From a virus: 64,000 nucleotides of DNA. The stretch lies in IMG/VR virus record IMGVR_UViG_3300010352_001565, positions 115,055 through 179,054 of that record. The stretch is one strand, 5' to 3'. The notes under the pieces are model-generated. The model had not been told where the DNA came from. It was given only the letters and a program-made list of their open reading frames with translations, and ran no database searches. Shown piece by piece: positions 4,042 through 58,930 of this stretch (the stretch's first letter is position 1; each line of letters opens with the position of its first letter). Position numbers and translations under genes: made by a program.

Positions 4042-4069
4042 TTTACAAATTTTAGTTTCGTGATATAGT
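4042..4069 (+). promoter_or_regulatory. sigma70-like promoter P1 (TTTACA-N16-TGaTATAGT), ATG 6 nt downstream
   Basis: aaaaatagttgcaaataaatgTTTACAaattttagtttcgTGaTATAGTgccatcATG; conserved upstream 30-bp element present. Confidence 0.6.
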
Positions 4070-4075
4070 GCCATC

Positions 4076-4438
4076 ATGATTACGAACATCCAAGAACGCG
4101 AAGAGCTTGAATTCGTTCACGAGCGTGAAGACCGCATGTGCCTCGAAGAAGCCGCTAGCTCGGTTTCAATGGGCAACGCCGACGCTCGCGCGGAGATCAA
4201 CGCTGCCCTTGCCAAAGGATTGTTCGTAGTGGTCTTTGAGCATCCCGCTTACTGCCGCGCGACTGACGCCATCTGCGGAACGTGGGTTGACGCCCACTCG
4301 ACGCACGCCACTCGCTCCCGCGCTCAAGCCGCCATCGACTCACTTACCAGTAGCGATTTTGACCCTGAGACCAATGTCTACATCCTCCCTCGCGCCGACG
4401 TTCAACCCTCAACCGGAGACGAAGAGCTCCCATTCTGA
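4076..4438 (+). CDS. small acidic protein (early-gene-like)
   Basis: ATG 6 nt after -10 of P1 (leaderless); acidic 120-aa product. Confidence 0.5.
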   Translation: MITNIQEREELEFVHEREDRMCLEEAASSVSMGNADARAEINAALAKGLFVVVFEHPAYCRATDAICGTWVDAHSTHATRSRAQAAIDSLTSSDFDPETNVYILPRADVQPSTGDEELPF

Positions 4439-4441
4439 TTT

Positions 4442-4714
4442 ATGCCTGACATTCCACTGCCACTAAATTTTGAGTCGTTAGCAGAGCAGATTTCCGAAGA
4501 ATACGACGATGACGCTCGCTATTCGCTTAACCGCGACGGAAGCACGCTTTACCTCCAATACTCGGACCACCACAACGGACAGCTCTACGTCGTTGTTTTG
4601 CAGGAGAGCGACGAGCTCTACCAGGCAATTGAGGCCAGAATCGAGGAAGGAGCGTTCTGGGCGACGAAGGAAGAAATGCTGAGACTCGGCGGAAAACTTA
4701 TCGGAGAAGACTAA
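4442..4714 (+). CDS. small acidic protein
   Basis: ORF with AATTTATGCC start context shared by several genes; 90 aa. Confidence 0.5.
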   Translation: MPDIPLPLNFESLAEQISEEYDDDARYSLNRDGSTLYLQYSDHHNGQLYVVVLQESDELYQAIEARIEEGAFWATKEEMLRLGGKLIGED

Positions 4715-4717
4715 TTT

Positions 4718-5032
4718 ATGCCAGAAAAATTACAAATTCAAACCCACCACATCGCCTGGATCTTCGAGTCCGCGCAAGAGCACTTCGCCAAGAAGATTGC
4801 TGAAATGGAACTCGAGATCATGCGCCACGAACACTTCGCGAACGACCCGCTTATCGACGTGCGCATGAGAGTCCGCAAGACCCGCGTCGCTCGAGTTGCC
4901 GAGCTTCGCACGCGCCTTGAGGAATACCGCATGGTGGCTGAGTTCTGTCGCGAAGGTCGCGAGAAAGCGGTCGACGTCTCTGCCGAAGAGTTTGCCAAAG
5001 AATTCAAAAAATCATTCACCAAGGGACAATAG
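4718..5032 (+). CDS. hypothetical protein
   Basis: 104-aa ORF, TAATTTATGCC start context. Confidence 0.5.
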   Translation: MPEKLQIQTHHIAWIFESAQEHFAKKIAEMELEIMRHEHFANDPLIDVRMRVRKTRVARVAELRTRLEEYRMVAEFCREGREKAVDVSAEEFAKEFKKSFTKGQ

Positions 5033-5037
5033 GTAGT

Positions 5038-5301
5038 ATGCCAAAAGAAACCACCATAAAGCACGCGGAGTGGCTTGCGACCGACGAGATCAAGTCGGTC
5101 CACGTCAATAACTCAGAGATGCAGGAGTGCCTTGAGCAGTATCGCAAAACAACGGTGACTGCGTCGACTGACGAAGACTCGAGCGTGCTAGACGCTGCCG
5201 TGTTTGTGGACAACGAGGGATGCATCCAGATCTTCCACAAGAATGGGGGCTGGATTCGCTGCGTGCCGTTCGTCGCTGACGTTGCTCCGTTCGCGGGATA
5301 A
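5038..5301 (+). CDS. hypothetical protein
   Basis: 87-aa ORF in same operon. Confidence 0.45.
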   Translation: MPKETTIKHAEWLATDEIKSVHVNNSEMQECLEQYRKTTVTASTDEDSSVLDAAVFVDNEGCIQIFHKNGGWIRCVPFVADVAPFAG

Positions 5302-5304
5302 TTT

Positions 5305-5619
5305 ATGCCACAGCCATACCTAACCAATCTCAGGGTCAAGAAAGGTCCGCACGGGTGGATCGAGCTTGAAGACTGCAGTGTCCAGGTGGCACAGGCTAGC
5401 GGAGTCATGCGCGAGGACCGAGACGAGACTCAGGCTCGAATCATCCAGTGCATCAACGCCTGCGCCGGAATGCCAGATCCTGTCGCGGACATTCGAAGAC
5501 TCATGGAGGAAAATCGTCGGCTGCGTGAGATGGAGCGCCGCCTTCCAAATGCGGACTCGTCTGACCCCACCCAAGAATTCTGCGATCCGCCTCCCGGCAT
5601 ACAACCGTATGGTATTTGA
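5305..5619 (+). CDS. hypothetical protein
   Basis: 104-aa ORF, TAATTTATGCC start context. Confidence 0.45.
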   Translation: MPQPYLTNLRVKKGPHGWIELEDCSVQVAQASGVMREDRDETQARIIQCINACAGMPDPVADIRRLMEENRRLREMERRLPNADSSDPTQEFCDPPPGIQPYGI

Positions 5620-13271: not shown

Positions 13272-13672
13272 TGGGCAACAAGGTTGACAACCACGAAGGA
13301 AAGCCACCGGTCGTAGGAACCGGCATGCCCACTAGCCTATACCTTGAAGAGTTCGGCTCACAGGTGTGGGCAGCTTTTGGAGAACCTCCCTATCTTGTTG
13401 GATCCGCCCTATTTGGCAAGCAGTGGCGCGACGTTGACATTAGGCTCATCCTGGACGACAAGGAGTATGAACGCCTGGGTCTTGGAGATCCTGAGCTACC
13501 GCATCATAACGGGAAGTGGGTCTCGCTGTGCATGGCATACGCAGCTCTCGGAAAGCAGATGACTGGCCTTCCGATTGACTTCCAGATTCAACAGATGACG
13601 CACGCTAACAAGAAGTTCGCAGGCGGGCGTTCTGCCATCGGGTTTGTTTCCCTGAGGATAGTTAAGGAGTGA
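13265..13672 (+). CDS. hypothetical protein
   Basis: 135-aa ORF. Confidence 0.4.
   Translation: MVMGNKVDNHEGKPPVVGTGMPTSLYLEEFGSQVWAAFGEPPYLVGSALFGKQWRDVDIRLILDDKEYERLGLGDPELPHHNGKWVSLCMAYAALGKQMTGLPIDFQIQQMTHANKKFAGGRSAIGFVSLRIVKE
13659..13671 (+). promoter_or_regulatory. late-type motif TAGTTA-N4-GTG
   Basis: gaTAGTTAaggaGTG directly at start of 1410-aa gene. Confidence 0.5.
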
Positions 13673-18231: not shown

Positions 18232-18260
18232 TTTACAAACTGCGGAAAAGTTGATATACT
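18232..18260 (+). promoter_or_regulatory. sigma70-like promoter P12 (TTTACA-N17-TGaTATACT), ATG 6 nt downstream
   Basis: aaaaatgTTTACAaactgcggaaaagtTGaTATACTctttccATG. Confidence 0.5.
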
Positions 18261-18266
18261 CTTTCC

Positions 18267-18524
18267 ATGAACATCAACACCGCCATTGCGGTAATGGAGA
18301 AGATTCTCTACGCAATTGAGGCTCTGTGCGGAGCTGCTATCACAGCAGTTGGTCTTAGCCACCTGATTGTGGTCCTCTCTGGGCAATTCCTGTGGTGCGA
18401 ACCTTTGGTCGGAGCCTCCGTGTTCTGGGCAGGACTTTACTGGCTAATTCGAATGCACAAATACTATGAAAACAAAAAATCTGAAAAAATCGCAGAAGCC
18501 GAAGAAGAAACAGCTGAAGCTTAA
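18267..18524 (+). CDS. holin-like small membrane protein (2 TM + charged C-terminus)
   Basis: Two hydrophobic helices then KYYENKKSEKIAEAEEETAEA charged tail; class-II holin-like topology. Confidence 0.45.
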   Translation: MNINTAIAVMEKILYAIEALCGAAITAVGLSHLIVVLSGQFLWCEPLVGASVFWAGLYWLIRMHKYYENKKSEKIAEAEEETAEA

Positions 18525-20157: not shown

Positions 20158-20763
20158 GTGAATACTCATGCCATCTTACGCGAGAGGATCCTCATCAAGG
20201 CGGGAATCACCCCAAAACCAAATCCGGCGCTGCTGTACGAGAAGCTTGCCAAGTCTGAGTGGAGCGTCCAGTTTGAGCAGCTCATGCGCAATCGACTTGG
20301 TCCCTACGCGTGGAGCTCAAAGTTCGAGCAGCTCATGCGGAACCGGTTAATAATGGGAGCGTTCAGATACGGGCTTCTCGGCTATCACAAGAAACCGCAG
20401 TATGACCGAATCGCCAGCGCTTTGCGCCGTCTTGAAAAATACGCTGAATTTGGAAATCTAGAGCTTCTTGTCGACGTCGCGAATATGTGCCTGGTCGAGT
20501 TTGTTGAAGGAAAGCACCCGGATAGGCACTGGGACGTCGCATCGGCATTCAAAAACGATCTATTTTGTATAAAAAATTCGACTGGAATTGGCACGCCATG
20601 CATCAGAGAGGCTCTTGACTGCTACACAAGCACAAAGGATCTTGAGGCACTCGTATTGGCAGCCGACTGGTCCATGGTTGAATTTGTTGAAGAAAACCAT
20701 ACGAACAGCCATTGGGAGGCAGCCGATGACGGAGAGCACGCCACAGCGATAGTTAACGCGTGA
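20158..20763 (+). CDS. hypothetical protein with internal duplications (GTG start)
   Basis: Tandem FEQLMRNRL..FEQLMRNRL and two EFVE(G/E)xH..HW(D/E) segments. Confidence 0.45.
   Translation: MNTHAILRERILIKAGITPKPNPALLYEKLAKSEWSVQFEQLMRNRLGPYAWSSKFEQLMRNRLIMGAFRYGLLGYHKKPQYDRIASALRRLEKYAEFGNLELLVDVANMCLVEFVEGKHPDRHWDVASAFKNDLFCIKNSTGIGTPCIREALDCYTSTKDLEALVLAADWSMVEFVEENHTNSHWEAADDGEHATAIVNA
20272..20345 (+). repeat. tandem duplication (~24-bp core repeated at 51-bp period) inside CDS 20158
   Basis: ttYgagcagctcatgcgSaaYcgRYt occurs twice. Confidence 0.5.
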
Positions 20764-21389: not shown

Positions 21390-21402
21390 TAGTTAGGGTG
21401 TG
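21390..21402 (+). promoter_or_regulatory. late-type motif TAGTTA-N4-GTG
   Basis: cgTAGTTAgggtGTG at start of gene 21400. Confidence 0.45.
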
Positions 21403-21738
21403 ATCGTACACGCACTAGCATGGGACTATCCCTATACGAATAACGTTCAAGCTCTGGAGTTTGTCGTTGAGAGCTCTCCAGATCTGATTCACTGGAGATG
21501 CCGGGCCACCCTTCCGTTGACTGTCCAAATGTACGTCATCTCCGACCAAGACGCCATCGCGTTTTACCGCGTGGGCGTTCAACCCATTGGAACTCCGCTG
21601 AGAAACGACCCTGTTCCTCCGCCTCCTCCGCCACCCCCTACTGAGGAAACTGAGCACGTTGCTGGAATTTCTGGGAACATCGATTTGCCGCCTCTTCCAG
21701 TCACAACAAATGCCGTCCAGAGTCAGGCCAGAAAATAG
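21400..21738 (+). CDS. hypothetical proline-rich protein
   Basis: GTG start after late motif; PPPPPPPP tract. Confidence 0.4.
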   Translation: MIVHALAWDYPYTNNVQALEFVVESSPDLIHWRCRATLPLTVQMYVISDQDAIAFYRVGVQPIGTPLRNDPVPPPPPPPPTEETEHVAGISGNIDLPPLPVTTNAVQSQARK

Positions 21739-21751
21739 TTGCAAAAAAGTG

Positions 21752-21779
21752 TTTACATTTATGCGTAGCATGATATAGT
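21752..21779 (+). promoter_or_regulatory. sigma70-like promoter P2 (TTTACA-N16-TGaTATAGT), ATG 6 nt downstream
   Basis: gaaaatagttgcaaaaaagtgTTTACAtttatgcgtagcaTGaTATAGTgctaccATG. Confidence 0.6.
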
Positions 21780-21785
21780 GCTACC

Positions 21786-22208
21786 ATGATTAACGCATTT
21801 GACCGTTCGAACCTGGGTCTGATTAACGAAGAAATCAAGACCGCTTTAAAAGCGATTGCTGAAAAGCACGGAGTCAAGCTTGGTGGAATCCGAATCTCGT
21901 TCAGTCCTCAAAACGCCGGTTTCCGCTTCGACCTGTCCACCGTTAGCGAGAACGGAGTGGTAAACGACCGCTACCGCCAATCCTTCATCGCCAACGCTTT
22001 CCAGTATGGCCTTGAGGCCTCCGATCTTGACAAGACCTTCAGCTATGGTGGAAAAACTTACACGATCACCGGTCTGAACACCCGCCGCCACTCGCGTCCG
22101 ATCATCACAAAGCGCTCCGACGGAATGGGAACTGTATTCCCTGCAGCCGCCGTGAAAACCGCTCTCATGCTTGACCGCGCCAAAGCAACCGCTACCAACG
22201 CCCAATAA
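21786..22208 (+). CDS. hypothetical protein
   Basis: 140-aa ORF starting 6 nt after P2 -10. Confidence 0.5.
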   Translation: MINAFDRSNLGLINEEIKTALKAIAEKHGVKLGGIRISFSPQNAGFRFDLSTVSENGVVNDRYRQSFIANAFQYGLEASDLDKTFSYGGKTYTITGLNTRRHSRPIITKRSDGMGTVFPAAAVKTALMLDRAKATATNAQ

Positions 22209-24955: not shown

Positions 24956-24980
24956 TCTCAAAAATAGTTGCAAGTAAATG

Positions 24981-25008: not shown

Positions 25009-25014
25009 ATCGCC

Positions 25015-39277: not shown

Positions 39278-39290
39278 TAGTTAAGCCATG
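39278..39290 (+). promoter_or_regulatory. late-type motif TAGTTA-N4-ATG
   Basis: ggTAGTTAagccATG. Confidence 0.5.
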
Positions 39291-39834: not shown

Positions 39835-39863
39835 TTTACATTTTGCTGAAAACATGATATAGT
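39835..39863 (+). promoter_or_regulatory. sigma70-like promoter P6 (TTTACA-N17-TGaTATAGT), ATG 7 nt downstream
   Basis: aaatttgTTTACAttttgctgaaaacaTGaTATAGTcagtggtATG. Confidence 0.55.
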
Positions 39864-39870
39864 CAGTGGT

Positions 39871-40260: not shown

Positions 40261-40270
40261 TTAAAGCATG
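40258..40270 (+). promoter_or_regulatory. late-type motif TAGTTA-N4-ATG (TAG is stop of upstream gene)
   Basis: gagTAGTTAaagcATG. Confidence 0.5.
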
Positions 40271-40627
40271 AACAATAGGACGATTGCAAGACAGATCGTT
40301 GAGGAACTCGTTGACGGAGACGACAATTTCAAATATGGAGGGATCGTTGTCATCATTGACGGTGGAGAGCCTGCTAAACCCGAGATCAGGGAGTGCGACG
40401 CTTTCAAAGTTCCGGATGATGTCAACGTCGACCCGTACACCTGCGATGAGTTCGGGTGCGACGACACCGAAGGAATCATCAACTTCTGCCGCAGCTTGAG
40501 ATCAGGAGAATTGGGCCAACCGCTTGGAAAAGCAAAGGTTCAGTTTTTCGGGCTTGACGGTCGCGAAGAACCAGAGGTGCTGACGCCCGAGCACGCCGGT
40601 GCGACGTTGATCTACAACCAGGAGTAG
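40268..40627 (+). CDS. hypothetical acidic protein
   Basis: 119-aa ORF after late motif. Confidence 0.45.
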   Translation: MNNRTIARQIVEELVDGDDNFKYGGIVVIIDGGEPAKPEIRECDAFKVPDDVNVDPYTCDEFGCDDTEGIINFCRSLRSGELGQPLGKAKVQFFGLDGREEPEVLTPEHAGATLIYNQE

Positions 40628-40637
40628 TTAGCGCATG
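40625..40637 (+). promoter_or_regulatory. late-type motif TAGTTA-N4-ATG (TAG is stop of upstream gene)
   Basis: gagTAGTTAgcgcATG. Confidence 0.5.
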
Positions 40638-41019: not shown

Positions 41020-41053
41020 AAGGCGTGCTGCTACGAGGTGGCACGCCTTTTTA
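41020..41053 (+). terminator. rho-independent terminator
   Basis: ggcgtgc-tgctacgaggtg-gcacgcc then TTTTT; followed by promoter P7. Confidence 0.6.
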
Positions 41054-41078
41054 GTCTAAAAATAGTTGCAAATAAATG

Positions 41079-41106
41079 TTTACATTTTTCCGAAGAATGA
41101 TATAGT
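41079..41106 (+). promoter_or_regulatory. sigma70-like promoter P7 (TTTACA-N16-TGaTATAGT), ATG 8 nt downstream
   Basis: aaaaatagttgcaaataaatgTTTACAtttttccgaagaaTGaTATAGTgcttgtgtATG. Confidence 0.6.
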
Positions 41107-41114
41107 GCTTGTGT

Positions 41115-41996
41115 ATGCCAGATCAAAACAACACTGAACTCGTTACGACCGTCGGCGTCGAGATCGAGATGGAAAACACACGGAATGTCAACTCAGATGT
41201 CCGTTTCATCTCTGACAAGCTCTCCCGTGCCGGTCTCAACTGGGTCGTTAAAACAGACGCTTCTTGCGGCCGCTCTGGAGCGGGAGTTGAGCTAAACTCT
41301 CCCATTCTGCGCACCGACGCTGATCTCAATTCTGTGTCGAGAGTCTGCGAAATGATGGATGAACTTGGTTATAAGGTGACGAAGAAATGCGGGTTGCACG
41401 TCCATATCGACGTCCGCCGTCTCACTGAGGACGAGAGAAACCGCCTTATCCGCTTCTTTGTCCAATACCAAGACTGCTTCTTTGAGCTCGCTCCTGGACG
41501 CCGCGCGGTGCACTACTGCGCGCCGCTGACGGCAGACGTGCTTGCTAAGCTGCGGCAAAACCGCGGTTGGTCTGCGTGGTCTACCCGCTATTTCTGGATG
41601 AACGGGTGCGCTTACACGGAACACGGCACTGTTGAGTTCCGCCTGATGAGTGGCAGCCTCAACCCGAATCATGTGACTGGATGGGTCAACTTCTTGCTTT
41701 ATGTCTATGACAAGGTTGTGAACCACGGAGCTTTCGGAGACGCCACATTCTTCCATCCAGATGCTTCGACTGGACGCGACTGCTTTGACAAAATGCTGCA
41801 CGTCACTGGACTTGACAACCTCGAGGTTGAAGGTCGAGCTGAAGTTGCTCGCAGCTGGGTGACCGCTCGCTGGGACGACGCTCACTCAGATGTCCAGTCA
41901 ATTCGCGCCGAACGACGCCGCCGCCTCCAAGCTGCTTGGCGCGGTGAAGCCCCGTATGTGAAAATCGTATCGCCTAACACCACAATGGCTGACTAG
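41115..41996 (+). CDS. glutamine-synthetase-fold amidoligase (Amidoligase_2/GCS2-like), paralog A
   Basis: TVGVEIEM first strand, GLHVHIDV, VEFRLMSGSLN; same three blocks in genes 43378 and 56981; ORF track start 41109 is alternative upstream codon. Confidence 0.6.
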   Translation: MPDQNNTELVTTVGVEIEMENTRNVNSDVRFISDKLSRAGLNWVVKTDASCGRSGAGVELNSPILRTDADLNSVSRVCEMMDELGYKVTKKCGLHVHIDVRRLTEDERNRLIRFFVQYQDCFFELAPGRRAVHYCAPLTADVLAKLRQNRGWSAWSTRYFWMNGCAYTEHGTVEFRLMSGSLNPNHVTGWVNFLLYVYDKVVNHGAFGDATFFHPDASTGRDCFDKMLHVTGLDNLEVEGRAEVARSWVTARWDDAHSDVQSIRAERRRRLQAAWRGEAPYVKIVSPNTTMAD

Positions 41997-42822: not shown

Positions 42823-43381
42823 GAAGGATCCGAAGTGCGCCCCGATCGAAATGCGCCGAGATGTGGAGCACCTGGTTGAGATGATCTACACCAACCTGAA
42901 GCAGCCGTATGCATCAATCTGGATCTCCCAGGTGACCCTCCTGGCTCCTCGGTGCAACACAACTAAGCTGTGCAAGGCCATGACATTCTGGATCCTTAAC
43001 GAGCTTACTGGGATGGTCGATTCAATTCGCGCTAGACGCCTAAAAAGGACGATTGCGTTTTACTACAAAATCCATACATCCGAGGCGGCGCACTGCAAGG
43101 CGCTTGTTCATCGGAAAACAAAGAAAGCGGCTCTCCGGTCCAGGGGATACGCCCAGAAGTTCGCCGTTCAGGCCATGGCGTTTGCAATTAAAAACGGGTA
43201 CCGCTCATCAGCCCAGGCTCTTAGGGCGTGCATGCTGTCGCGAATCGCGGTCCGCTCAGGGTCTAAGAAGCACTATCAGCTCAGGCCACATCTTGCTCCT
43301 CACACAGATCCGTTCGGATGCTACACCCATGCCGCCGTAACACTTCTGGTGATGCTTAACCGCTTTGTAGTTAAGCAGTGA
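42812..43381 (+). CDS. hypothetical basic protein
   Basis: 189-aa ORF. Confidence 0.4.
   Translation: MDFKKDPKCAPIEMRRDVEHLVEMIYTNLKQPYASIWISQVTLLAPRCNTTKLCKAMTFWILNELTGMVDSIRARRLKRTIAFYYKIHTSEAAHCKALVHRKTKKAALRSRGYAQKFAVQAMAFAIKNGYRSSAQALRACMLSRIAVRSGSKKHYQLRPHLAPHTDPFGCYTHAAVTLLVMLNRFVVKQ
43368..43380 (+). promoter_or_regulatory. late-type motif TAGTTA-N4-GTG
   Basis: tgTAGTTAagcaGTG. Confidence 0.45.
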
Positions 43382-44375: not shown

Positions 44376-44404
44376 TTTACAAACTTAAGCAAGCGTGCTA
44401 TGTT
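44376..44404 (+). promoter_or_regulatory. sigma70-like promoter P13 (TTTACA-N17-TATGTT)
   Basis: ggTTTACAaacttaagcaagcgtgcTATGTTagacaaagccATG. Confidence 0.35.
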
Positions 44405-44414
44405 AGACAAAGCC

Positions 44415-44660
44415 ATGGTACTGTTTTTCATACTTCTGCTGGTTTGGACATTTGCGATCGTAATGGCCGCGGCCCTGCTGTGGCTTATTTTTGCCGGACT
44501 TAAACCAGCGCTGAAAGGAATGGCAAACTACTCCGGATTGATTTGGCTAGCTATTGTCATCTCTCTTATCACGCTTTTTGTGGCGCATGACGACCGTGTC
44601 ACCGGATGGGTATTCGTCGTGATGATAGCCATCAGCCTTATTGCTTCGCATCGCAAGTAG
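44415..44660 (+). CDS. small membrane protein (3 hydrophobic segments)
   Basis: MVLFFILLLVWTFAIVMAAALLWLIFAG..; second in-frame ATG of ORF 44400..44660. Confidence 0.35.
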   Translation: MVLFFILLLVWTFAIVMAAALLWLIFAGLKPALKGMANYSGLIWLAIVISLITLFVAHDDRVTGWVFVVMIAISLIASHRK

Positions 44661-46140: not shown

Positions 46141-46168
46141 TTTACATTTTTCCGTGGCGTGATATAGT
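46141..46168 (+). promoter_or_regulatory. sigma70-like promoter P8 (TTTACA-N16-TGaTATAGT), ATG 8 nt downstream
   Basis: caaaaaagtgTTTACAtttttccgtggcgTGaTATAGTgctctcatATG. Confidence 0.6.
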
Positions 46169-46176
46169 GCTCTCAT

Positions 46177-47310
46177 ATGAGTAACGTATCACCGCAGCAA
46201 GTCGCCTCTGTAATGAGGCTCACGGACAACCAGCTCAAAGCCGAATATTGGATCGGCAATAAGACTGGCCACTTGTTCAGGATCATCCGTATCGAAGGAA
46301 ACGGTTCCGCCCGCGAGGTCACCTACTGCGCTCCCGGCCAGCAAGAGACCTATACGAAGCCTCTTGACAAGTTCGCCAAAATCTTCCACCAAGCTGATCG
46401 CGACGAGATCTACTCTATTCTCGCTCCGCTGATTCAGCCTGTCGGTGAGGATGAAGCTGTTGGTCTGCTTATTGAACCCGACCAACGCCACGACTTCGGC
46501 CGCATCATCCTCCACGAGGAAACCCGCTTAGCCATCTCCACCGGTCTGAAGCGCATTCAAAACCGCGACGCCATGGAGCAAGTTTGGGGTCTGAGCGCCA
46601 TTGAGCCTCTCGGCAACCGCTGCATCTTGAACGGCTGGGGATTGCCCGGCACCGGCAAGACGCTCGCCTGCTACTGCATCGCTCGCATGCTTGAGAAGAA
46701 AGTCTATCAGGTCGACTACTCTGCCATCATTTCAAAGCAGCTTGGTGACACTGCCAAGCACATTGTGGCTGCGTTCGCTGCTGCCAAAAAACACGACGCC
46801 ATCTTGCTTTTCGACGAAGCAGACTCTCTTGTGTCTCGCCGCATCGAGATAGCCATGAGCACGTCGTTCGCGACCAGCATCAACCAAAACCGCAACGTGT
46901 TCATGCAGGAGCTTGACCGCTATGACGGGATCGTTTACTTGACCACCAACATGTTCGAGAACTACGACCCAGCCATGCTGCGCCGCATTGCTCGTCACAT
47001 CCCGTTCAATCTGCCCAATGCAGAAATGCGCCGGCAACTCTTTGCATGGCACCTCCCTCGCGTCGAGCGCGTCCGCATTAGCGATTGGACGAACATCTGC
47101 GCTTCGACAGAGGGCTTCTCTGGCGGCGACATCAAGAATGTTGTCATGAATTCGATCGACCGCGTCAGCATGAGCGAGGACCCGGAAACGTGGTATCTGA
47201 CTGAGGACGCTGTTCTCACTGAGGTTGGACTCATCAAGAGCTCCAAGGAACGCCACGCCCGGAACAACGGCCGCAATGACGAAGCCATCGCCGCAGCCAC
47301 CTTGAAATAA
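46177..47310 (+). CDS. AAA+ ATPase
   Basis: Walker A GLPGTGKT, Walker B ILLFDEADSL, sensor-1 TTN, arginine finger region MLRRI. Confidence 0.7.
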   Translation: MSNVSPQQVASVMRLTDNQLKAEYWIGNKTGHLFRIIRIEGNGSAREVTYCAPGQQETYTKPLDKFAKIFHQADRDEIYSILAPLIQPVGEDEAVGLLIEPDQRHDFGRIILHEETRLAISTGLKRIQNRDAMEQVWGLSAIEPLGNRCILNGWGLPGTGKTLACYCIARMLEKKVYQVDYSAIISKQLGDTAKHIVAAFAAAKKHDAILLFDEADSLVSRRIEIAMSTSFATSINQNRNVFMQELDRYDGIVYLTTNMFENYDPAMLRRIARHIPFNLPNAEMRRQLFAWHLPRVERVRISDWTNICASTEGFSGGDIKNVVMNSIDRVSMSEDPETWYLTEDAVLTEVGLIKSSKERHARNNGRNDEAIAAATLK

Positions 47311-47645: not shown

Positions 47646-48526
47646 TCCGCCATGATGGCCTGGACTTTAACCTTTCCAGTCGAGGCCTCTGATTCTCCGT
47701 AGTAGAAACGGAGCCACACCGCGCCGGTCGGTTTAGGAGGACCGCCGCGCTCGATGTGCCAGCCTTCAGAACCATCCGCAAACTCATCCTTGTAACCCGG
47801 CGTCTTAATGTGAAGCTGGGTGTCTTTGTAAATCACGCCAGAGTTGCTCAACCTCAACCTCTCGATCGGGAAGATCCATTCGTTGTGGGTGTGGCCTGTG
47901 CACACAATGTCGGCGTCAGGCAGGTACACCGACATGCGGTTTGTTTGGATCGTTCCTTTGGTAACCGGAGCGTCGCCTCCGTAGCCATGGTGGTAGTACA
48001 GTCGCTTGCTGAGCCGCTGCGTGCCGTGCACGGTAAACATGAACCGCATCCATCCAGAGAATCCTCCGATATAGATCGGGTTGTCGACAGGACGCATTGT
48101 GTTTAGGATCTGAACGAACCTCTCTGTCAGGTTTGTCTGATGATGCTTGAGAATGCTTCCCTCGTGGTTTCCTGGGGCAACAAGAGCAAAATTCTTAGCG
48201 TACGGTTTGTAAAAATCGGCGTTGTAGTTGACGAGCCTGTCGAGGTAGTTCGCTCCTCGAAGCTCGGGACGCATTTGACTTTCGTCAGCGCGCTTATCCC
48301 ATTTTCCTTGCATCGCACAGAAAAGATCCCCGTACTTCACGATCAGCGCGTCGCGCTTAAGCGCCTCATCGAGATGTTTCTTTTCAAGAGCATGATCGCA
48401 ATGAATGTTGTCGTGGTGTTCGTCAGATGAAAGTAAGACCCACTGTTCCCATCCCAATTTAACGTCATCGATGTACACTGACAATACATTCCGGGACTCC
48501 GACCTTAGCTGAATGGAGTTTTTCAT
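47642..48526 (-). CDS. calcineurin-like metallophosphoesterase
   Basis: SSDEHHDN, APGNHEG and GHTHNEWIF blocks (GDxHG / GNHE / GHxH metallophosphatase motifs); convergent with gene 47310. Confidence 0.65.
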   Translation of the reverse strand: MKNSIQLRSESRNVLSVYIDDVKLGWEQWVLLSSDEHHDNIHCDHALEKKHLDEALKRDALIVKYGDLFCAMQGKWDKRADESQMRPELRGANYLDRLVNYNADFYKPYAKNFALVAPGNHEGSILKHHQTNLTERFVQILNTMRPVDNPIYIGGFSGWMRFMFTVHGTQRLSKRLYYHHGYGGDAPVTKGTIQTNRMSVYLPDADIVCTGHTHNEWIFPIERLRLSNSGVIYKDTQLHIKTPGYKDEFADGSEGWHIERGGPPKPTGAVWLRFYYGESEASTGKVKVQAIMAD

Positions 48527-48593
48527 TAGGCGTTACGGTTCGTATTAACTACGCGTCTTTTTCTATTCGCTGAAAATAAACGAATTAAGGGGG

Positions 48594-48622
48594 TTTACAA
48601 GGTTTTGTTAACGTGCTACAGT
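48594..48622 (+). promoter_or_regulatory. sigma70-like promoter P14 (TTTACA-N17-TACAGT), uncertain
   Basis: gggTTTACAaggttttgttaacgtgcTACAGTATG; ATG abuts -10; divergent from minus-strand gene 47642..48526. Confidence 0.3.
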
Positions 48623-48946
48623 ATGAGGGTGGGCAAACAACTTAAACACCAAGTTGAAAGGAAACATATGAACATGACTGATCAAATAATCGCGGGTAAA
48701 CCGGCGGATGAAAAACTTCCTCCGCAGGCAAGGGAGATCGTAAAAGCAGTACGGGCGACGCACGGTGTTACGCTTGACCGGCTAGCCACCAAGTTGGATG
48801 GAAAGCTGAAGACTAAACAGCCTGTCAAGCGTATCATTTCGTTTTACATGCCCAGGCTGAAAAAAGGCGGATACTTGAAAGTCGCACACGCCAAGAAACA
48901 AGAGCCTCGCTCGAAGAAAATTCACGCTTCAGCGAAAGCAGCGTAG
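48623..48946 (+). CDS. small basic protein
   Basis: ATG within ORF 48605..48946; lysine-rich C-terminus. Confidence 0.4.
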   Translation: MRVGKQLKHQVERKHMNMTDQIIAGKPADEKLPPQAREIVKAVRATHGVTLDRLATKLDGKLKTKQPVKRIISFYMPRLKKGGYLKVAHAKKQEPRSKKIHASAKAA

Positions 48947-48986: not shown

Positions 48987-49157
48987 AGTCTACAAAACCA
49001 AATATGAAAAATCAGTTTACAAACAATCCGCGTGAACACAACAACGAAAACAACAATCCTGGTCGAACGCCCAGCATGGCTTGTCAACCTGCTGAAACTT
49101 CGAAAGACTCACCGATACAAACGGAAGATGCCTCGCAAGATCAAAGGTAGATAGTCT

Positions 49158-49580
49158 GTGAATGCGCGCACCATCATCGAGAATCTTGACATATTCGGAC
49201 GGACATTTGCCAGCGCTCCGCGGCACCGGACGCAAGCCGCTGTCGACCCGAACGACGCAAGGATGATGAGGCGCCTGACACCGGCCTCGACCGGAGCTCC
49301 GTACGGGCGCCGCCAACGGACCAGTGAGCCTCAGGCCGCTGGTTCGGCGGTGTGCTCAGAGTGCGGCGTCAGAACCGAGAAGATCGCATTCCGCAAGGAT
49401 GCTAAAAACTGGATCTGCAATCAGTGCTACAGCCCGATCTCCGAGTCGATATTCACCGACAACGAGTTTGTGAGATCCACCATTGCGGCTGGGTACAACC
49501 GTAAACCAGCCCCATTCAAATCCGAACCTCAGACAATTTCCGACTTTCAGGCAAAGCTCGCCGCTCTTAAAGGTGCGTAG
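49158..49580 (+). CDS. zinc-ribbon protein
   Basis: CSECG..(19 aa)..CNQC. Confidence 0.4.
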   Translation: MNARTIIENLDIFGRTFASAPRHRTQAAVDPNDARMMRRLTPASTGAPYGRRQRTSEPQAAGSAVCSECGVRTEKIAFRKDAKNWICNQCYSPISESIFTDNEFVRSTIAAGYNRKPAPFKSEPQTISDFQAKLAALKGA

Positions 49581-49590
49581 TTAGGGGGTG
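49578..49590 (+). promoter_or_regulatory. late-type motif TAGTTA-N4-GTG (TAG is stop of upstream gene)
   Basis: gcgTAGTTAgggGGTG. Confidence 0.5.
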
Positions 49591-51508: not shown

Positions 51509-51537
51509 TTTACATTATTTTGGATTCGTGCTATTAT
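51509..51537 (+). promoter_or_regulatory. sigma70-like promoter P16 (TTTACA-N18-TATTAT)
   Basis: catgTTTACAttattttggattcgtgcTATTATtacgagtATG. Confidence 0.4.
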
Positions 51538-51544
51538 TACGAGT

Positions 51545-51751
51545 ATGAGCACGATCAAAAAGACTCAAAGAAGTTCGGGTGGAACATCAGTACTCTCTTT
51601 CAGAATCCCTGACGACCAGCGCACAACTCTTAACCAGCTGGCCGCAACAAGTCTAATCGTCGGGGTTCATTCTGGAGAGCAGCTCGCCCGGCAGATTGTG
51701 ACTGACTTCATTGCTGGAAAAATACGCTATCCGCAAACTCAGCAAGCGTAA
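51545..51751 (+). CDS. small putative ribbon-helix-helix DNA-binding protein
   Basis: 68 aa; SFRIPDDQRTTLNQLA (beta-strand + helix typical of RHH/CopG/MobC-type N-termini). Confidence 0.4.
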   Translation: MSTIKKTQRSSGGTSVLSFRIPDDQRTTLNQLAATSLIVGVHSGEQLARQIVTDFIAGKIRYPQTQQA

Positions 51752-51779: not shown

Positions 51780-51808
51780 TTTACATTTTAGCGTTAATGT
51801 GGTAGTAT
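51780..51808 (+). promoter_or_regulatory. sigma70-like promoter P9 (TTTACA-N17-TAGTAT), ATG 6 nt downstream
   Basis: caaaaagtgTTTACAttttagcgttaatgtggTAGTATtaccgcATG. Confidence 0.5.
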
Positions 51809-51814
51809 TACCGC

Positions 51815-52255
51815 ATGACGTTAAAACAAACTATATTGGTCACTGCTGTATCCATCACTTTACTTAGTTCGATGGACTCAACTGCAAAATCACAAGAAAT
51901 CGTAGCGGCTGTCCTGATCGCTGAAGCTGGGGGAGAAGGAGTTCAGGGAATGGAAGCCGTCTACGAGATCATCAACAACAGGTCCGTTCGTGGAAAGAAA
52001 TCGTACGAAGACGTAGTCACGCAGCCCGCACAGTTCTCGTGCTTGAACGGAGTCACCACCGACGATCTGATCGCAAAGTCAAAGCAGCATCCTCGCTGGG
52101 AACAAGCGCTTCAGATGGTCAAGTCGCCTCCGACTACTCGATATGCGAATGGGGCGACTCACTATTACGCGAACTGGATCAAGAAGACTCCGAAGTGGGC
52201 AGTGGGAAAAACCCCCGTTGCTACACTTGGAAAGCACCTCTTCTTCAGGATCTAG
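51815..52255 (+). CDS. SleB-like cell-wall hydrolase (Hydrolase_2 family) with N-terminal signal/anchor; endolysin candidate
   Basis: Signal-like N-terminus; AEAGGEGVQGMEAVYEIINNR .. QPAQFS .. THYY blocks typical of SleB/CwlJ cell wall hydrolase domain. Confidence 0.6.
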   Translation: MTLKQTILVTAVSITLLSSMDSTAKSQEIVAAVLIAEAGGEGVQGMEAVYEIINNRSVRGKKSYEDVVTQPAQFSCLNGVTTDDLIAKSKQHPRWEQALQMVKSPPTTRYANGATHYYANWIKKTPKWAVGKTPVATLGKHLFFRI

Positions 52256-56112: not shown

Positions 56113-56928
56113 GTGCAAAAATTTAGAACCCCGAGCGAGGCTTATTTGGCTGTCCTCGCCGACGTTGTAGACAACCCAGAATACCGCGTTTCTCCACGCG
56201 GGCAGCCGATAGCCGAGAAGACAGACTACTCGTTTGAGGTAGCTCTCCCAGATGCAAGCCCGATCGTCACCCGTTCAGAGTCCCGCAACAAAACCATTGC
56301 CGACTACACCCACAAGGAGTTTGAGGTTTACGAGAGCGGATCTCGCAGAGTTGAGGATTTCGCGAAGATCAGCAGCTTCTGGAAATCACTCGCAAATCCA
56401 GATGGAACGATCAACTCGTCTTACGGACACTTGATCTTCAAAAACCAGTCGTGCGGAAATCCAACGTACGAAGTTCAGCGCAAGTTTCTGAACGAGCACG
56501 ACGGCAATGGCGGATCGGAAGGAGTGAACCTCAGCGAGCTTGAGCGAACACCATGGGAGTGGGCTTCCGAGTCTCTCATCCAGGACAAAGATACCCGCCA
56601 AGCCATCATGCACTTTAACCTTCCTGAACACTGTTGGGTCGGCAACCGTGACGTCACATGCACGATGCATGGAATCTTCCAGATACGCCAGGACAAACTC
56701 AACCTCTCAGTGGTCATGCGGTCAAATGACGTCGTTCTTGGTCTCGTATTCGATCTACCATGGTTCATGCACCTGATCGACAGGATGGTCGCAGCGCTGA
56801 AGCCAACGTATCCTGCCCTCACAAAAGGCCACTACCGCCACATGGCGCACTCAATGCACGTCTACGGACGCGACATGGAAAAGGTGAATATGATGCTCGG
56901 CAGGGGTATGCTCAGCGGCGCTCAGTAA
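56113..56928 (+). CDS. divergent thymidylate-synthase-family paralog (pyrimidine hydroxymethylase candidate)
   Basis: GTG start; DVTCTMHGIFQ aligns to ThyA PCHAFFQ (Cys retained); VVMRSNDVVLGLVFDLPWFMHL aligns to [23 protein letters not shown]; far more divergent than thyA at 52768. Confidence 0.55.
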   Translation: MQKFRTPSEAYLAVLADVVDNPEYRVSPRGQPIAEKTDYSFEVALPDASPIVTRSESRNKTIADYTHKEFEVYESGSRRVEDFAKISSFWKSLANPDGTINSSYGHLIFKNQSCGNPTYEVQRKFLNEHDGNGGSEGVNLSELERTPWEWASESLIQDKDTRQAIMHFNLPEHCWVGNRDVTCTMHGIFQIRQDKLNLSVVMRSNDVVLGLVFDLPWFMHLIDRMVAALKPTYPALTKGHYRHMAHSMHVYGRDMEKVNMMLGRGMLSGAQ

Positions 56929-56946
56929 AATAGTTGCAAATAAATG

Positions 56947-56974
56947 TTTACAATTTTCCGTATCGTGATATAGT
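56947..56974 (+). promoter_or_regulatory. sigma70-like promoter P10 (TTTACA-N16-TGaTATAGT), ATG 6 nt downstream
   Basis: taaaatagttgcaaataaatgTTTACAattttccgtatcgTGaTATAGTtctgatATG. Confidence 0.6.
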
Positions 56975-56980
56975 TCTGAT

Positions 56981-57961
56981 ATGAACGCTGTACTACCAGT
57001 CACGGTCGGTTTTGAGCTTGAGTTTGGCTCGCCGAACCAGCAGATACTTTCTGTGATTGCCGACGCCATGGCGAGGAACAACTACCCCGTCACCAACTTC
57101 GGCCGCTGGCGCCACACTCCTGCCAACCCATCAACGTGGGATCTCAAAACCGATTCGAGCTGCGGATACCGCGAAGGCGTGGGCGGGTTTGAAGTTGTGA
57201 GCCCCGTGATTCGCACGTACGACGAGCTCGTGCACGCCGTCAAGGTTGCCAACATCGTCACCCGTTGTGGCGGAAGTGCGAATCGCCGCTGCGGTCTGCA
57301 CGTCCACATCGGGTTTCGCCAGTTCAACACTCCCGAAATTCGGGAGCGCCTGTTTCGATTTCTGTCTCGCTACGAGGAGGCATTCTACATGCTCGTTCCA
57401 GAAACCCGCCGCAACAACCCCTACTGCAAACCGATGAACGTGCGAATCATCGAGTCGGTTAAAGCGAAGCATGGGCGCGTTGACGTGGGAATGGCATGGC
57501 AAGACAAGAACACCTGGATCAACTTCGCGACTCTGAACCGCATCGGCACCGTAGAGTTTCGCTTCATGGAAGGAACTCTCGACCCAAATCTCATCCTCAA
57601 CTATGTGATGTTCCTCGTCCATGTTATGGACACGATTATCGCTGGGAAGCGGGTGTCCTGGGGTCGCGCCAGCGCCAAGAGCAACCGCATGCTGTTTTTC
57701 ACCATGCTGCAGCAGCTCAATCTCTACGGAAAGAAATCCAAGTCGCAAGACGAAGACCGCGCCAAGACAGTTCGAAAATGGACGGTCAAGAGGTTTGCCG
57801 CGTTCAACCCAAATCCAAATCAGCCTCGGCAAGAGCTGACGGGTCGCGCAGAAGACCGTCCTGCTTTGACTGAAGCAGACATTGCGAACCGCGCACAGGC
57901 TGAGGCCGTCCCAACACCAGCGCCCGCCAACCCGGGTCAACCTAATGGAGGTGTGCAATGA
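56981..57961 (+). CDS. GS-fold amidoligase, paralog C
   Basis: TVGFELEF, GLHVHIGFR, VEFRFMEGTLD. Confidence 0.6.
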   Translation: MNAVLPVTVGFELEFGSPNQQILSVIADAMARNNYPVTNFGRWRHTPANPSTWDLKTDSSCGYREGVGGFEVVSPVIRTYDELVHAVKVANIVTRCGGSANRRCGLHVHIGFRQFNTPEIRERLFRFLSRYEEAFYMLVPETRRNNPYCKPMNVRIIESVKAKHGRVDVGMAWQDKNTWINFATLNRIGTVEFRFMEGTLDPNLILNYVMFLVHVMDTIIAGKRVSWGRASAKSNRMLFFTMLQQLNLYGKKSKSQDEDRAKTVRKWTVKRFAAFNPNPNQPRQELTGRAEDRPALTEADIANRAQAEAVPTPAPANPGQPNGGVQ

Positions 57962-58305
57962 TGTCAAACCCAATGGGCTCTCCCGGAGAGGAGAGCAGCG
58001 AAGAGAAGTTTCGCAGGCACGAAGAGATCAAGAAGACGGTGTTCACCATCAGCGCCACTGATGGCCCATGCATGGCATGCATGAGCGCGAGAAACCGCAT
58101 CGGAGCTAAGCCAGGTGACATACTTCGAATCGAGCACGACCGCTCTGTGATCCACCGCAGGGTGTTTAAAATTCCGCAGATGGCGGTGCCAATGGCAAAC
58201 AAGAATATGATCTGGCTTAACGTGTCAGACATGGGGCTGCTTGAAGCTGAAAACGGCTCACAAGCACTCGTGACCGTCTCTGAAGAAACTGACGAATTCC
58301 CATGA
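57958..58305 (+). CDS. hypothetical acidic protein
   Basis: 115-aa ORF, ATGATG overlap. Confidence 0.4.
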   Translation: MMSNPMGSPGEESSEEKFRRHEEIKKTVFTISATDGPCMACMSARNRIGAKPGDILRIEHDRSVIHRRVFKIPQMAVPMANKNMIWLNVSDMGLLEAENGSQALVTVSEETDEFP

Positions 58306-58496
58306 ACTCGATTATTAAAGCATCTTTAAGGCTGACTGATTGCGAAGGCTGGAGAATCGGCGACCGCTTTCTTTACGACGGAGTGCGGTACACATTCACC
58401 GGCAAGGATCAAGTCGGAGGACTGCACGCGAGCCGTGACGACGCGCCAAAGCAGGATGTTTTCGAGTCGTCTGGCGCGTGGGAGGGAGTTGGATGA
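58302..58496 (+). CDS. hypothetical small protein
   Basis: 64-aa ORF, ATGA overlap. Confidence 0.3.
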   Translation: MNSIIKASLRLTDCEGWRIGDRFLYDGVRYTFTGKDQVGGLHASRDDAPKQDVFESSGAWEGVG

Positions 58497-58721
58497 CCGA
58501 CAGCGAGAAAATCATTGACTGGTATCTCAGAATAAGGAGGGTAGTCTTCTCGCTGCAGATCTCAAAAACTCTGTGGTGGATTAAGAGCGAGCATGGCTAC
58601 CGCCATTACATTCCGCTTGGAACGACGTACTGCCGCATCGACCGCGAGAAAGGCTATGGACACCAGTTCGCGCTTATCGCCGGTCCGCTGCGGCTTGGAA
58701 TCCTTCGCGTTAAAAAATATG

Positions 58722-58883
58722 AACCAAATCATAGTTTATCACAGTCAATCTGACGCAAACAGCGACTGGTACTGGAATCAGATATTCTGGCCGTGGGTGT
58801 ACAACCACTGGTTTGCATGTTTCGTTGCCGGGTTTGTCATCGGTTTCACCATCATGCTCATTCGAAGGATTGTTCGAAAATAG
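58722..58883 (+). CDS. small membrane protein
   Basis: Internal ATG of ORF 58593; WFACFVAGFVIGFTIMLI TM helix; its stop TAG lies in the upstream element of P11. Confidence 0.3.
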   Translation, partial: NQIIVYHSQSDANSDWYWNQIFWPWVYNHWFACFVAGFVIGFTIMLIRRIVRK

Positions 58884-58896
58884 TTGCAAATAAATG

Positions 58897-58924
58897 TTTA
58901 CAAATTTCCGTAGCGTGATATAGT
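58897..58924 (+). promoter_or_regulatory. sigma70-like promoter P11 (TTTACA-N16-TGaTATAGT), ATG 6 nt downstream
   Basis: cgaaaatagttgcaaataaatgTTTACAaatttccgtagcgTGaTATAGTcctcccATG. Confidence 0.6.
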
Positions 58925-58930
58925 CCTCCC

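Follow-up and report, generated by a model that had tools for sequence, protein, structure and literature searches.

Several described systems each hold part of the arrangement that we report here. The early promoters of bacteriophage T4 are "uber" promoters that combine an UP element, a -35 hexamer, TGn and a -10 hexamer (PMC2988021), and in the PeSLs (promoter-early stem-loop cassettes) of T4-type phages a stem-loop is followed by an AT-rich region, a promoter of the PST/T4 consensus TTTACW-N17-TAYWAT, a Shine-Dalgarno (SD) sequence and a start codon (PMC4122927). In Deinococcus-Thermus, a -10 box that adjoins the open reading frame (ORF) is the rule for leaderless genes (PMC12340547), and a passage of PMC4842269 describes a TGnTA-like promoter motif of leaderless bacteriophage genes, with Thermus phage phiYS40 cited. 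Here we analyze a 64-kb stretch of viral DNA, referred to as the window (positions 115,055 to 179,054 of IMG/VR record IMGVR_UViG_3300010352_001565; 53% G+C, nearly all genes on the plus strand). Proteins identical to those of the window are found on metagenome contigs of 68 kb, 90 kb and 222,710 bp, and the window is therefore part of an uncultivated giant phage. It carries 15 copies of a promoter-like element with two hexamers (class 1), most of them only a few nucleotides before an ATG, and a shorter motif, TAGTTA (class 2), that also lies just before start codons. Leaderless expression as such is a known, if uncommon, principle. New here is that it occurs together with a consensus-grade T4-style cassette, in a giant phage clade entirely free of SD sites and with a second start-abutting motif.

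The exact class-1 core, TTTACA-N16-18-TATAGT, has nine matches in the window, all on the plus strand, and none in 100 shuffles. The composite TGTTTACA-N16/17-TAnnnT-N6-8-ATG has 13 matches, likewise all on the plus strand, with 0 expected. A relaxed scan added two looser copies and recovered, at the same coordinates, all 15 promoter sites proposed in an earlier sequence-only reading of this DNA (Table 1). The spacer between the hexamers is 16 bp in seven copies and 17 bp in eight. Aligned across all 15 copies, G-TTTACA is invariant, and TTTACA agrees with TTGACA at five of six positions. In the -10 hexamer, T1, A2 and T6 are invariant and the inner positions vary, which gives the forms TATAGT, TATACT, TACTGT, TATGTT, TACAGT, TATTAT and TAGTAT; TACAGT is an addition to the variants that the sequence-only reading had correctly listed (TATACT, TACTGT, TAGTAT, TATGTT and TATTAT). 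An extended -10 TG is present in at least 90% of the copies. Upstream of the -35, in the position of an UP element, six copies have in common the block AAAATAGTTGCAA(A/G)(T/A)AA(A/G)TG, and most of the remaining copies also have A-rich sequence there. Overall, the copies show 80-94% mutual identity across 37-65 bp. The class-1 element is thus longer than had been described and comprises an A-rich part, G-TTTACA, a TG extended -10 and TAnnnT. In sequence it has all the hallmarks of a housekeeping sigma70-type promoter, the type to which it had been assigned: variation occurs only where sigma70 promoters tolerate it, and invariant -10 positions 1, 2 and 6 together with variable inner positions are what one would expect if a group-1 sigma factor recognizes the element.

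Three class-1 copies are directly preceded by a terminator made of a hairpin and a T-run (3985-4011, 24927-24948 and 41029-41049), which is not found at the other 12; a terminator also precedes the class-1 copy at one ortholog in a related phage (L012, discussed below). In its order of stem-loop or terminator, AT-rich UP-like region, -35, TG and -10, the cassette resembles a PeSL, and TTTACA-N16/17-TATAGT fits TTTACW-N17-TAYWAT. The likeness extends to the many copies per genome, placed before small-gene operons, and to the presence of a degraded half-cassette. In contrast, a PeSL ends in an SD sequence and a start codon, whereas the phage cassette has neither a leader nor an SD sequence and places the ATG 6-8 nt after the -10. 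As a separate observation, words containing TAGT recur within the class-1 cassettes (4013-4041, 24950-24980 and 41051-41078) as TTTAGTCT, ATAGTTG and TATAGT, and TAGT is also part of the class-2 motif.

The distance between promoter and start codon is nearly constant. Nine copies (4042, 18232, 21752, 24981, 28276, 34522, 51780, 56947 and 58897) have 6 nt between the -10 and the ATG, two (39835 and 51509) have 7 nt and two more (41079 and 46141) have 8 nt. A gap of 6-8 nt is therefore found in 13 of 15 copies, not in 14 as previously counted (chance of at least 13/15, ~2e-16); the other two are 44376, with a gap of 10 nt, and 48594, with a gap of 0. A gap of 6 nt places the A of the ATG at the canonical +1. 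In all 14 copies with a usable ATG there is a pyrimidine at -1 and an A at +1 (chance, 3e-5 to 7e-4), which is the start context preferred by bacterial RNA polymerase. Both the geometry and this context are consistent with the expectation, already voiced in the sequence-only reading, that transcription would start on the A of the ATG. Moreover, this ATG is the first possible start codon of the ORF in 10 copies. In nine of those 10, an in-frame stop codon (often the TGA of TGATATAGT) lies 12-24 nt upstream and leaves no space for a leader with a ribosome-binding site; in the tenth (28276) the distance is 81 nt. In the class-1 gene at 56981, the amidoligase Pfam match begins at residue 7, and no SD site precedes the downstream in-frame start candidates of class-1 genes. 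ATG 34557 lies within a longer open frame that offers upstream TTG and ATG alternatives. The copy at 48594, whose ATG directly abuts the -10 and which had rightly been called uncertain, has an in-frame GTG at a gap of 6 nt and an alternative ATG (48668) 45 nt downstream with AAGGA before it. Judging from these candidates, the gene at this copy may have a leader.

To assess SD sites, we paired the 20 nt preceding each of 90 ORFs with the anti-SD sequence (16S rRNA tail) and calculated the duplex energy. The median was -2.35 kcal/mol upstream of the ORFs versus -2.80 kcal/mol at random positions, and energies of -6 kcal/mol or lower were found for 16% of ORFs versus 11% of random positions. No SD signal was found upstream of the 90 ORFs of the window, and the same was true in the related phages L011, L012, L037 and L038; anti-SD complementarity at background level across the ORFs agrees with the SD absence noted before. 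In the outgroup phage L039 (41% G+C), 64% of genes reach -6 kcal/mol or lower, a signal that validates the metric. Genes of the window that carry no motif start between -8 and +6 nt from the preceding stop codon, many of them through ATGA overlaps or as stop-N1-5-ATG. From this layout, the operons look to be built from a leaderless first cistron followed by genes translated through termination-reinitiation coupling. Since the coupled genes would depend on translation of the first cistron, the promoter-adjacent ATG would really be used. Separately, Met-Pro starts recur in the context stop-(A)TTT-ATGCC(A/T) at 4438, 4714, 5301 and 22488, with further cases at 41115 and 11993, and ATGCC also begins the AAA-ATPase orthologs of L011, L012, L037 and L038.

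Leaderless genes in cells provide a second comparison. The "group C" genomes of GeneMarkS-2 include 90% of Actinobacteria, 97% of Deinococcus-Thermus and 5.6% of Proteobacteria, and their internal operon genes keep SD sites (PMC6028130). Like these genomes, the phage has TAnnnT 6-8 nt before the first start codon of an operon, uses both ATG and GTG starts and has starts that gene callers misplace. Unlike them, it lacks SD sites at its internal genes as well, and its -35, TG and UP-like parts are near consensus, whereas cellular -10-adjacent promoters often have no good -35. Among phages, Sevostyanova et al. are said to have reported in 2007 that phiYS40, a large phage dependent on the RNA polymerase of its host, makes many leaderless mRNAs from extended -10 promoters. 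Its leaderless transcripts are reportedly middle and late ones from -10-only promoters, with early -35/-10 promoters giving leadered mRNAs. Here, in contrast, it is the full -35/-10 class that abuts the ATG, and the window has no DNA match to known phages (none in 50,697 phage records, in near or distant mode). The host phylum of phiYS40 is known for leaderless mRNAs.

The layout is conserved in related phages. The AAA+ ATPase encoded at 46177 has full-length relatives in other metagenomic phages, and in six related phages, at 47-77% protein identity, its ortholog is preceded by the same promoter-abutting-ATG arrangement (Table 1). In the more distant L039 (43% identity), AGGAG stands before the AAA-ATPase gene instead of the promoter layout. 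The N-termini of the ATPases align from the predicted Met in five relatives. Orthologs of other class-1 genes show similar arrangements: in L010, the ortholog of 56981 is preceded by TTTACA-N17-TATTGT-N5-GTG and that of 51545 by TTTACA-N16-TATGTT-N6-ATG, and L038 has two more class-1 copies, with gaps of 6 and 7 nt. Relatives prefer GG over TG before the -10. A metagenome scan with the promoter core gave 23 matches; N6-ATGA followed the core in both related fragments (2/2; L016 and L019), and an ATG at a gap of 6-8 nt was found in 0 of 21 unrelated ones. Public start calls for the AAA-ATPase deviate from the promoter-adjacent ATG, lying 12 codons downstream in P0002, further downstream in L012:1155 and 21 codons upstream in L037:6235. 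These alternative called starts are not conserved across relatives, whereas the promoter-adjacent ATG is. Start calling in this SD-free clade appears to be unreliable.

Taken together, these data make it likely that class-1 mRNAs are leaderless, with transcription starting on the A of the ATG. Leaderless expression is well supported by the sequence, from which we infer the start point, the polymerase and leaderless translation. The claim of systematic leaderless mRNAs in the sequence-only reading is borne out by the motif itself, by its conservation in relatives and by the absence of SD sites, and its transcripts stay predicted ones. In the mechanism that we propose, the class-1 cassette would act as a strong sigma70-type promoter (A-rich UP-like region, G-TTTACA, 16-17 bp, TG and TAnnnT, mostly TATAGT). 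The RNA polymerase start would coincide with the ATG, and the transcript would begin with AUG or at most about three extra bases. This mRNA would be translated presumably via direct 70S binding, and the downstream genes, which have no SD site and lie near the preceding stop codon, would be translated by termination-reinitiation coupling. The TAGTTA-N4-(A/G)TG motif would mark 12-14 more genes and offer a -10-only promoter to a polymerase that is modified or phage-directed, again with leaderless products. Several points weigh against this proposal. Two copies misfit (gaps of 10 and 0 nt), as does the L038 ortholog with its 13-nt gap, and copy 48594 offers a plausible leadered start with AAGGA. 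The model is built on DNA sequence throughout, its 5' ends are predicted, and the capacity of the host for leaderless translation is assumed. Finally, where no terminator intervenes, read-through from upstream would carry class-1 genes internally, and the promoters are not necessarily the sole source of their mRNA.

The class-2 motif, TAGTTA, has 13 copies on the plus strand of the window, every one at a gene start. In the form TAGTTA-N4-(A/G)TG it occurs 12 times versus 0.29 expected. A G precedes it in 10 of the 13 copies; nothing else is conserved from -50 to -2, and there is no -35-like element. The first base of the start codon after TAGTTA is always a purine (A/G), and GTG starts are found in 6 of 13 TAGTTA genes (46%) versus 2 of 37 coupled genes (p = 0.002). 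Each of the five largest ORFs is preceded by TAGTTA (p = 2e-5). In relatives, N4-RTG follows 10 of 17 TAGTTA sites, and one site precedes the baseplate-J-like gene of L038. Exceptions to the spacing are 6 nt at 958, 19 nt at the minus-strand copy 48551 and 6-11 nt at several sites in relatives. The minus-strand copy at 48551 lies in a divergent intergenic region, opposite class-1 promoter 11. The total of three minus-strand copies, versus ~4.7 expected, is uninformative on whether the motif functions at the DNA or the RNA level. A terminator hairpin lies upstream of genes 49158 and 49588, and no other promoter separates it from them. An origin of TAGTTA as a by-product of upstream stop codons was rejected, as the upstream stop varies in position from -4 to +24 nt relative to the start. 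The word GTAGTTCTTT occurs at 44657 and 54058, where it precedes the ATGs of 44672 and 54076 by 11-13 nt; by its sequence it may be a degenerate TAGTTA with a longer gap.

The closest parallels to class 2 are late promoters. The T4 gp55 late promoter, TATAAATA, is a single element ~5 nt from +1. The late promoters of phiEco32 and 7-11 have a 9-bp -10-like element that is read by a phage sigma factor (PMC8948821). (G)TAGTTA is similarly short, invariant and -10-only; it has no -35, lies 4 nt from the presumed +1 and shares the TA..TA pattern of TAAATA. It precedes the largest, partly virion-like genes (Ig-domain tail-like and fn3), and also an amidoligase-like gene. The known late promoters are followed by a leader and an SD sequence, whereas TAGTTA, a putative promoter, abuts the start codon. 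The 64-kb window yielded no sigma gene, gp55-like or other.

TAGTTA-N4-RTG is probably a second, -10-only class of leaderless promoter. This assignment draws on the purine at +1 and the GTG enrichment, the association with the largest ORFs, the variable spacing, the minus-strand copy and the two genes that follow a terminator (49158 and 49588). Against it stand the lack of any sigma or RNA polymerase gene in the 64-kb window that would explain the motif (~160 kb of the genome lies outside), the non-structural amidoligase-like gene among the TAGTTA genes, and the gene-by-gene interleaving of TAGTTA genes with class-1 units, which also fits an RNA-level signal. The motif could instead act in RNA, as a processing site that yields leaderless internal cistrons, as a translational operator that overlaps the start (like that of T4 RegA) or in ribosome recruitment independent of SD sites. 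We take this possibility seriously without favoring it. It would account for the single-gene interleaving with class-1 units (28276 to 30112 and 39278 to 40637), for sites that lie mainly at intergenic gaps of 7-24 nt, too long for direct stop-start coupling, and for the absence of a -35-like element or other upstream conservation; the missing phage sigma or polymerase gene and the metabolic, amidoligase-like class-2 gene also fit it. However, the gap ranges from 4 to 19 nt, which a promoter would tolerate and a ribosome-positioning signal would not, the minus-strand copy lies in a divergent intergenic region that needs a promoter, and between 49158 or 49588 and the terminator hairpin before them there is no further promoter. 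A first base restricted to A or G, with 46% GTG, fits the preference for a purine at +1, and the association with the largest, partly virion-like proteins, including the L038 baseplate-J-like gene, likewise speaks for the promoter assignment.

The class-1 cassettes, at 60-95 bp, might additionally be substrates for recombination through which gene modules are shuffled, a role that has been proposed for PeSLs. Such an extra role, which is compatible with leaderless transcription, is a tentative suggestion. It is in line with the 80-94% identity of the copies over 37-65 bp, the 20-nt upstream block common to six of them and the terminator half carried by three. It also fits a "half cassette" at 48957-48990, as degraded half-PeSLs have been described (PMC4122927). 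This half cassette consists of a strong hairpin (48957-48981), GGCCAGGGAG-ttcgt-CTCCCTGGCC, followed by TTTATAGTCTACAAAA, with no -35 or -10; it carries TTTATAGTCT and corresponds by homology to the terminator half of class-1 cassettes. Public copies of this phage, on the other hand, are near-identical in gene order, and the promoter is kept at orthologous positions across ~50% protein divergence, which argues for regulatory selection first.

A more far-reaching, and unlikely, scenario is that the whole giant-phage clade has dropped SD initiation and expresses each of its genes either by stop-start coupling or, by way of the two start-abutting signals, from an mRNA whose first codon is the start codon. 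The phage would also disable anti-SD-dependent initiation in the host, for example through changes to the 16S rRNA 3' end or to the initiation-factor balance, and thereby restrict translation to phage messages. TAGTTA-N4-RTG would then be a new start-codon-coupled signal, either a promoter class or an RNA processing or recruitment site.

Leadered class-1 mRNAs are still less probable. Under this alternative the promoters are real, and either transcription starts elsewhere or the true start codons lie further downstream and are used by a mechanism independent of SD sites. Public callers did pick other starts for some orthologs (P0002, L012 and L037), an ATG with AAGGA lies 45 nt downstream at copy 48594, and gaps of 10 and 13 nt exist. 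However, these called starts lack the conservation of the promoter-adjacent ATG, the downstream in-frame candidates have no SD site, the Pfam domain of 56981 begins at residue 7, and the N-termini align from the predicted Met in five relatives. The 6-8 nt register with its pyrimidine at -1 and A at +1 is too regular for coincidence.

It is equally improbable that the phage encodes or modifies the polymerase or sigma factor that reads the cassette, still with a leaderless product, in place of the unmodified housekeeping holoenzyme of the host. The 222-kb genome lies mostly outside the window, the -35 is G-TTTACA and not TTGACA, TATAGT is preferred over TATAAT in every strong copy, and relatives have GG, not TG, before the -10. 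However, two hexamers with a 16-17 bp spacer, TG and the invariant T/A/T are the signature of a group-1 sigma factor, and the TTTACW-N17-TAYWAT early promoters of T4 and PST use host sigma70 (PMC4122927, PMC2988021). No polymerase or sigma gene was seen in the 64 kb: no member of either family was found among the 63 small ORFs of the window, and the large proteins (1410, 618, 705, 571 and 458 aa) have no sequence match in PDB. A reading of these large proteins as pieces of an RNA polymerase was rejected on the same PDB result and on the absence of a DFDGD motif in any frame.

Bacteroidetes-type promoters have TTTG at -33 and TAnnTTTG at -7. This type was rejected, as TTTG never stands at the end of the -10 region and the upstream TTTG in relatives lies at an unsuitable distance, and an archaeal TATA/BRE reading was rejected in view of the bacterial two-hexamer layout, invariant -10 positions 1, 2 and 6 and hairpin-plus-T-run terminators.

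Table 1. Class-1 and class-2 sites of the window and class-1 promoters before AAA-ATPase orthologs in related phages
Feature	Position	Strand	Protein identity	Arrangement and gene
Class-1 cassette 1	3985..4078	+		terminator 3985-4011, A-rich AAAATAGTTGCAAATAAATG, TTTACA 4042, N16, TGA-TATAGT, 6 nt, ATG 4076 (120 aa)
Class-1 promoter 2	18232..18269	+		TTTACA-N17-TATACT, 6 nt, ATG 18267 (85-aa membrane protein)
Class-1 promoter 3	21732..21788	+		A-rich part, TTTACA (21752)-N16-TATAGT, 6 nt, ATG 21786 (140 aa)
Class-1 cassette 4	24927..25017	+		terminator 24927-24948, A-rich, TTTACA 24981, N16, TATAGT, 6 nt, ATG 25015 (329 aa)
Class-1 promoter 5	28276..28313	+		TTTACA-N17-TGC-TATAGT, 6 nt, ATG 28311 (136 aa)
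Class-1 promoter 6, weaker copy	34522..34559	+		TTTACA-N17-TACTGT, 6 nt, ATG 34557 (171 aa)
Class-1 promoter 7	39835..39873	+		TTTACA-N17-TATAGT, 7 nt, ATG 39871 (129 aa)
Class-1 cassette 8	41029..41117	+		terminator 41029-41049, A-rich, TTTACA 41079, N16, TATAGT, 8 nt, ATGCC 41115 (amidoligase-like, 293 aa)
Class-1 promoter 9, atypical	44376..44417	+		TTTACA-N17-TATGTT, 10 nt, ATG 44415 (81-aa membrane protein); ~3-nt leader predicted
Class-1 promoter 10	46141..46179	+		TTTACA-N16-TATAGT, 8 nt, ATG 46177 (AAA+ ATPase, 377 aa)
Class-1 promoter 11, uncertain	48594..48631	+		TTTACA-N17-TACAGT, ATG 48623 abutting; in-frame GTG 48629 at gap 6
Class-1 promoter 12	51509..51547	+		TTTACA-N17-TATTAT, 7 nt, ATG 51545 (68 aa)
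Class-1 promoter 13	51780..51817	+		TTTACA-N17-TAGTAT, 6 nt, ATG 51815 (cell-wall hydrolase-like, signal peptide, 146 aa)
Class-1 promoter 14	56927..56983	+		A-rich part, TTTACA (56947)-N16-TATAGT, 6 nt, ATG 56981 (amidoligase)
Class-1 promoter 15	58877..58933	+		A-rich part, TTTACA (58897)-N16-TATAGT, 6 nt, ATG 58931 (195 aa, weak DNA-ligase-like match)
AAA-ATPase ortholog, L036			77%	TTTACA-N17-TATATT-N6-ATG
AAA-ATPase ortholog, L010			49%	TTTACA-N16-TATAGT-N7-ATG
AAA-ATPase ortholog, L011			48%	TTTACA-N17-TAGACT-N9-ATG
AAA-ATPase ortholog, L012			52%	terminator, then TTTACG-N16-TAGTGT-N6-ATG
AAA-ATPase ortholog, L037			51%	TTTACA-N16-TAAGAT-N8-ATG
AAA-ATPase ortholog, L038			47%	TTTACA-N16-TAATAT-N13-ATG
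Class 2	13659..13671	+		TAGTTA-N4-GTG, 1410-aa gene
Class 2	20750..20762	+		TAGTTA-N4-GTG, 113-aa gene
Class 2	21390..21402	+		TAGTTA-N4-GTG, 112-aa gene
Class 2	28730..28742	+		TAGTTA-N4-GTG, 276-aa protein with fn3 domain
Class 2	29571..29583	+		TAGTTA-N4-ATG, 169-aa gene
Class 2	30100..30112	+		TAGTTA-N4-ATG, 571-aa gene
Class 2	36471..36483	+		TAGTTA-N4-ATG, 930-aa Ig-like-domain protein, resembles tail or decoration protein
Class 2	39278..39290	+		TAGTTA-N4-ATG, 95-aa lipobox lipoprotein
Class 2	40258..40270	+		TAGTTA-N4-ATG, 119 aa; TAG is the stop codon of the upstream gene
Class 2	40625..40637	+		TAGTTA-N4-ATG, 118 aa; TAG is the stop codon of the upstream gene
Class 2	43368..43380	+		TAGTTA-N4-GTG, 331-aa amidoligase-like protein
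Class 2	49578..49590	+		TAGTTA-N4-GTG, 618-aa gene; downstream of hairpin 48957-48981, no class-1 promoter between
Class 2, spacing variant	958..972	+		TAGTTA, 6-nt gap, ATG 970 (705-aa gene)
Class 2, one-mismatch variant	49148..49160	+		TAGATA-N4-GTGA, 140-aa gene at 49158
Minus-strand TAGTTA	48526..48551	-		19 nt upstream of ATG 48526 (294-aa phosphoesterase-like gene)

The genes of the window include two thymidylate-synthase-like genes, three amidoligases, a kinase/UDG-like gene, a methyltransferase, DHFR and thioredoxin, together with the AAA+ ATPase adjoining a prokaryotic YEATS protein, a cell-wall hydrolase and an Ig-domain tail-like protein. No T4 core genes were recognized within the 64 kb, and tRNA and Rfam scans of the window gave no match. 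A 221-kb contig of a relative encodes DNA polymerase A, a T4 gp13-like protein and Cpn10, and L038 encodes a baseplate-J-like protein. The two thymidylate-synthase-like genes, the kinase/UDG-like gene, the methyltransferase and three amidoligase-like genes form a cluster (41115-44373 and 52648-57961) that is syntenic with L010 and that, we presume, resembles phage pathways for thymidine or base hypermodification. The small YEATS-domain protein directly follows the AAA+ ATPase (46177-47645), in the same order as in L012 (1089-2565), and cellular homologs of the ATPase are without its first ~90 residues. The 571-aa protein of the gene after site 30100 has no relatives in IMG/VR and, among 5.8 billion clusters, matches only itself. 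At the end of the window, ATG 61767 opens a long ORF of at least 745 aa, which is preceded by TTAGTCTAGACTT and extends past the window end (61767-64000); it fills the stretch of 61.8-64 kb, and a view of that stretch as an ORF-free region was rejected.

No support was found for the "early/middle" timing that the sequence-only reading had given these mRNAs: of the class-1 copies, one stands before an endolysin-like gene and two before genes for small membrane proteins. Its suggestion of a Gram-negative host likewise lacks support. The lipoprotein on which it drew is a 95-aa protein behind a TAGTTA site (39288-39575) with a textbook lipobox (LLMLSAC); it is the only lipobox protein, and lipoproteins are not specific to Gram-negative bacteria. 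Two collection scans gave no clue to the host. The metagenome scan with the promoter core yielded none from its two related fragments and 21 unrelated matches, and a scan of 185,579 species genomes with the promoter plus ATGA returned at least 100 unrelated single matches, with no clade member among the matches listed. Prosthecobacter, the only taxon name on the cellular AAA-ATPase homologs, was set aside as no evidence of the host. SD-poor phyla include Bacteroidetes, Cyanobacteria, Chlorobi and Planctomycetes (PMC5397173). The earlier suggestion that the layout hints at the translation preferences of the host was right, and the hint is stronger than was then held.

Arrangements of similar form were seen in metagenome-assembled genomes (MAGs) of bacteria. 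Four from Spirochaetes (L053, L062, L084 and L114) share TGTTTACAAT...TTATAGT-N6-ATGAATAC(A/G)(A/C)GA, which by its sequence looks like a conserved leaderless-type promoter before one gene family, with no relation to the phage. In the Gammaproteobacteria MAGs CB4_SCM.74 and ANT-8 (L047, L050, L069 and L086), a near-identical 65-nt element with TGTTTACA-N16-TATAGT-N6-ATGA occurs on several contigs; its probable source is a multicopy mobile-element gene, of which it would form the promoter and start.

Misplaced public start calls in these phages could be corrected with the help of the promoter and TAGTTA motifs. If the proposed mechanism is true, a T4-style promoter cassette would work without a leader, and the window would offer a natural, many-copy test set for the making and translation of leaderless mRNAs outside Actinobacteria, Deinococcus-Thermus and archaea. 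The host would be narrowed to one with weak reliance on SD sites, or a translational takeover of the host would be indicated. The phage would then belong to a giant environmental clade whose entire expression programme bypasses the SD interaction.

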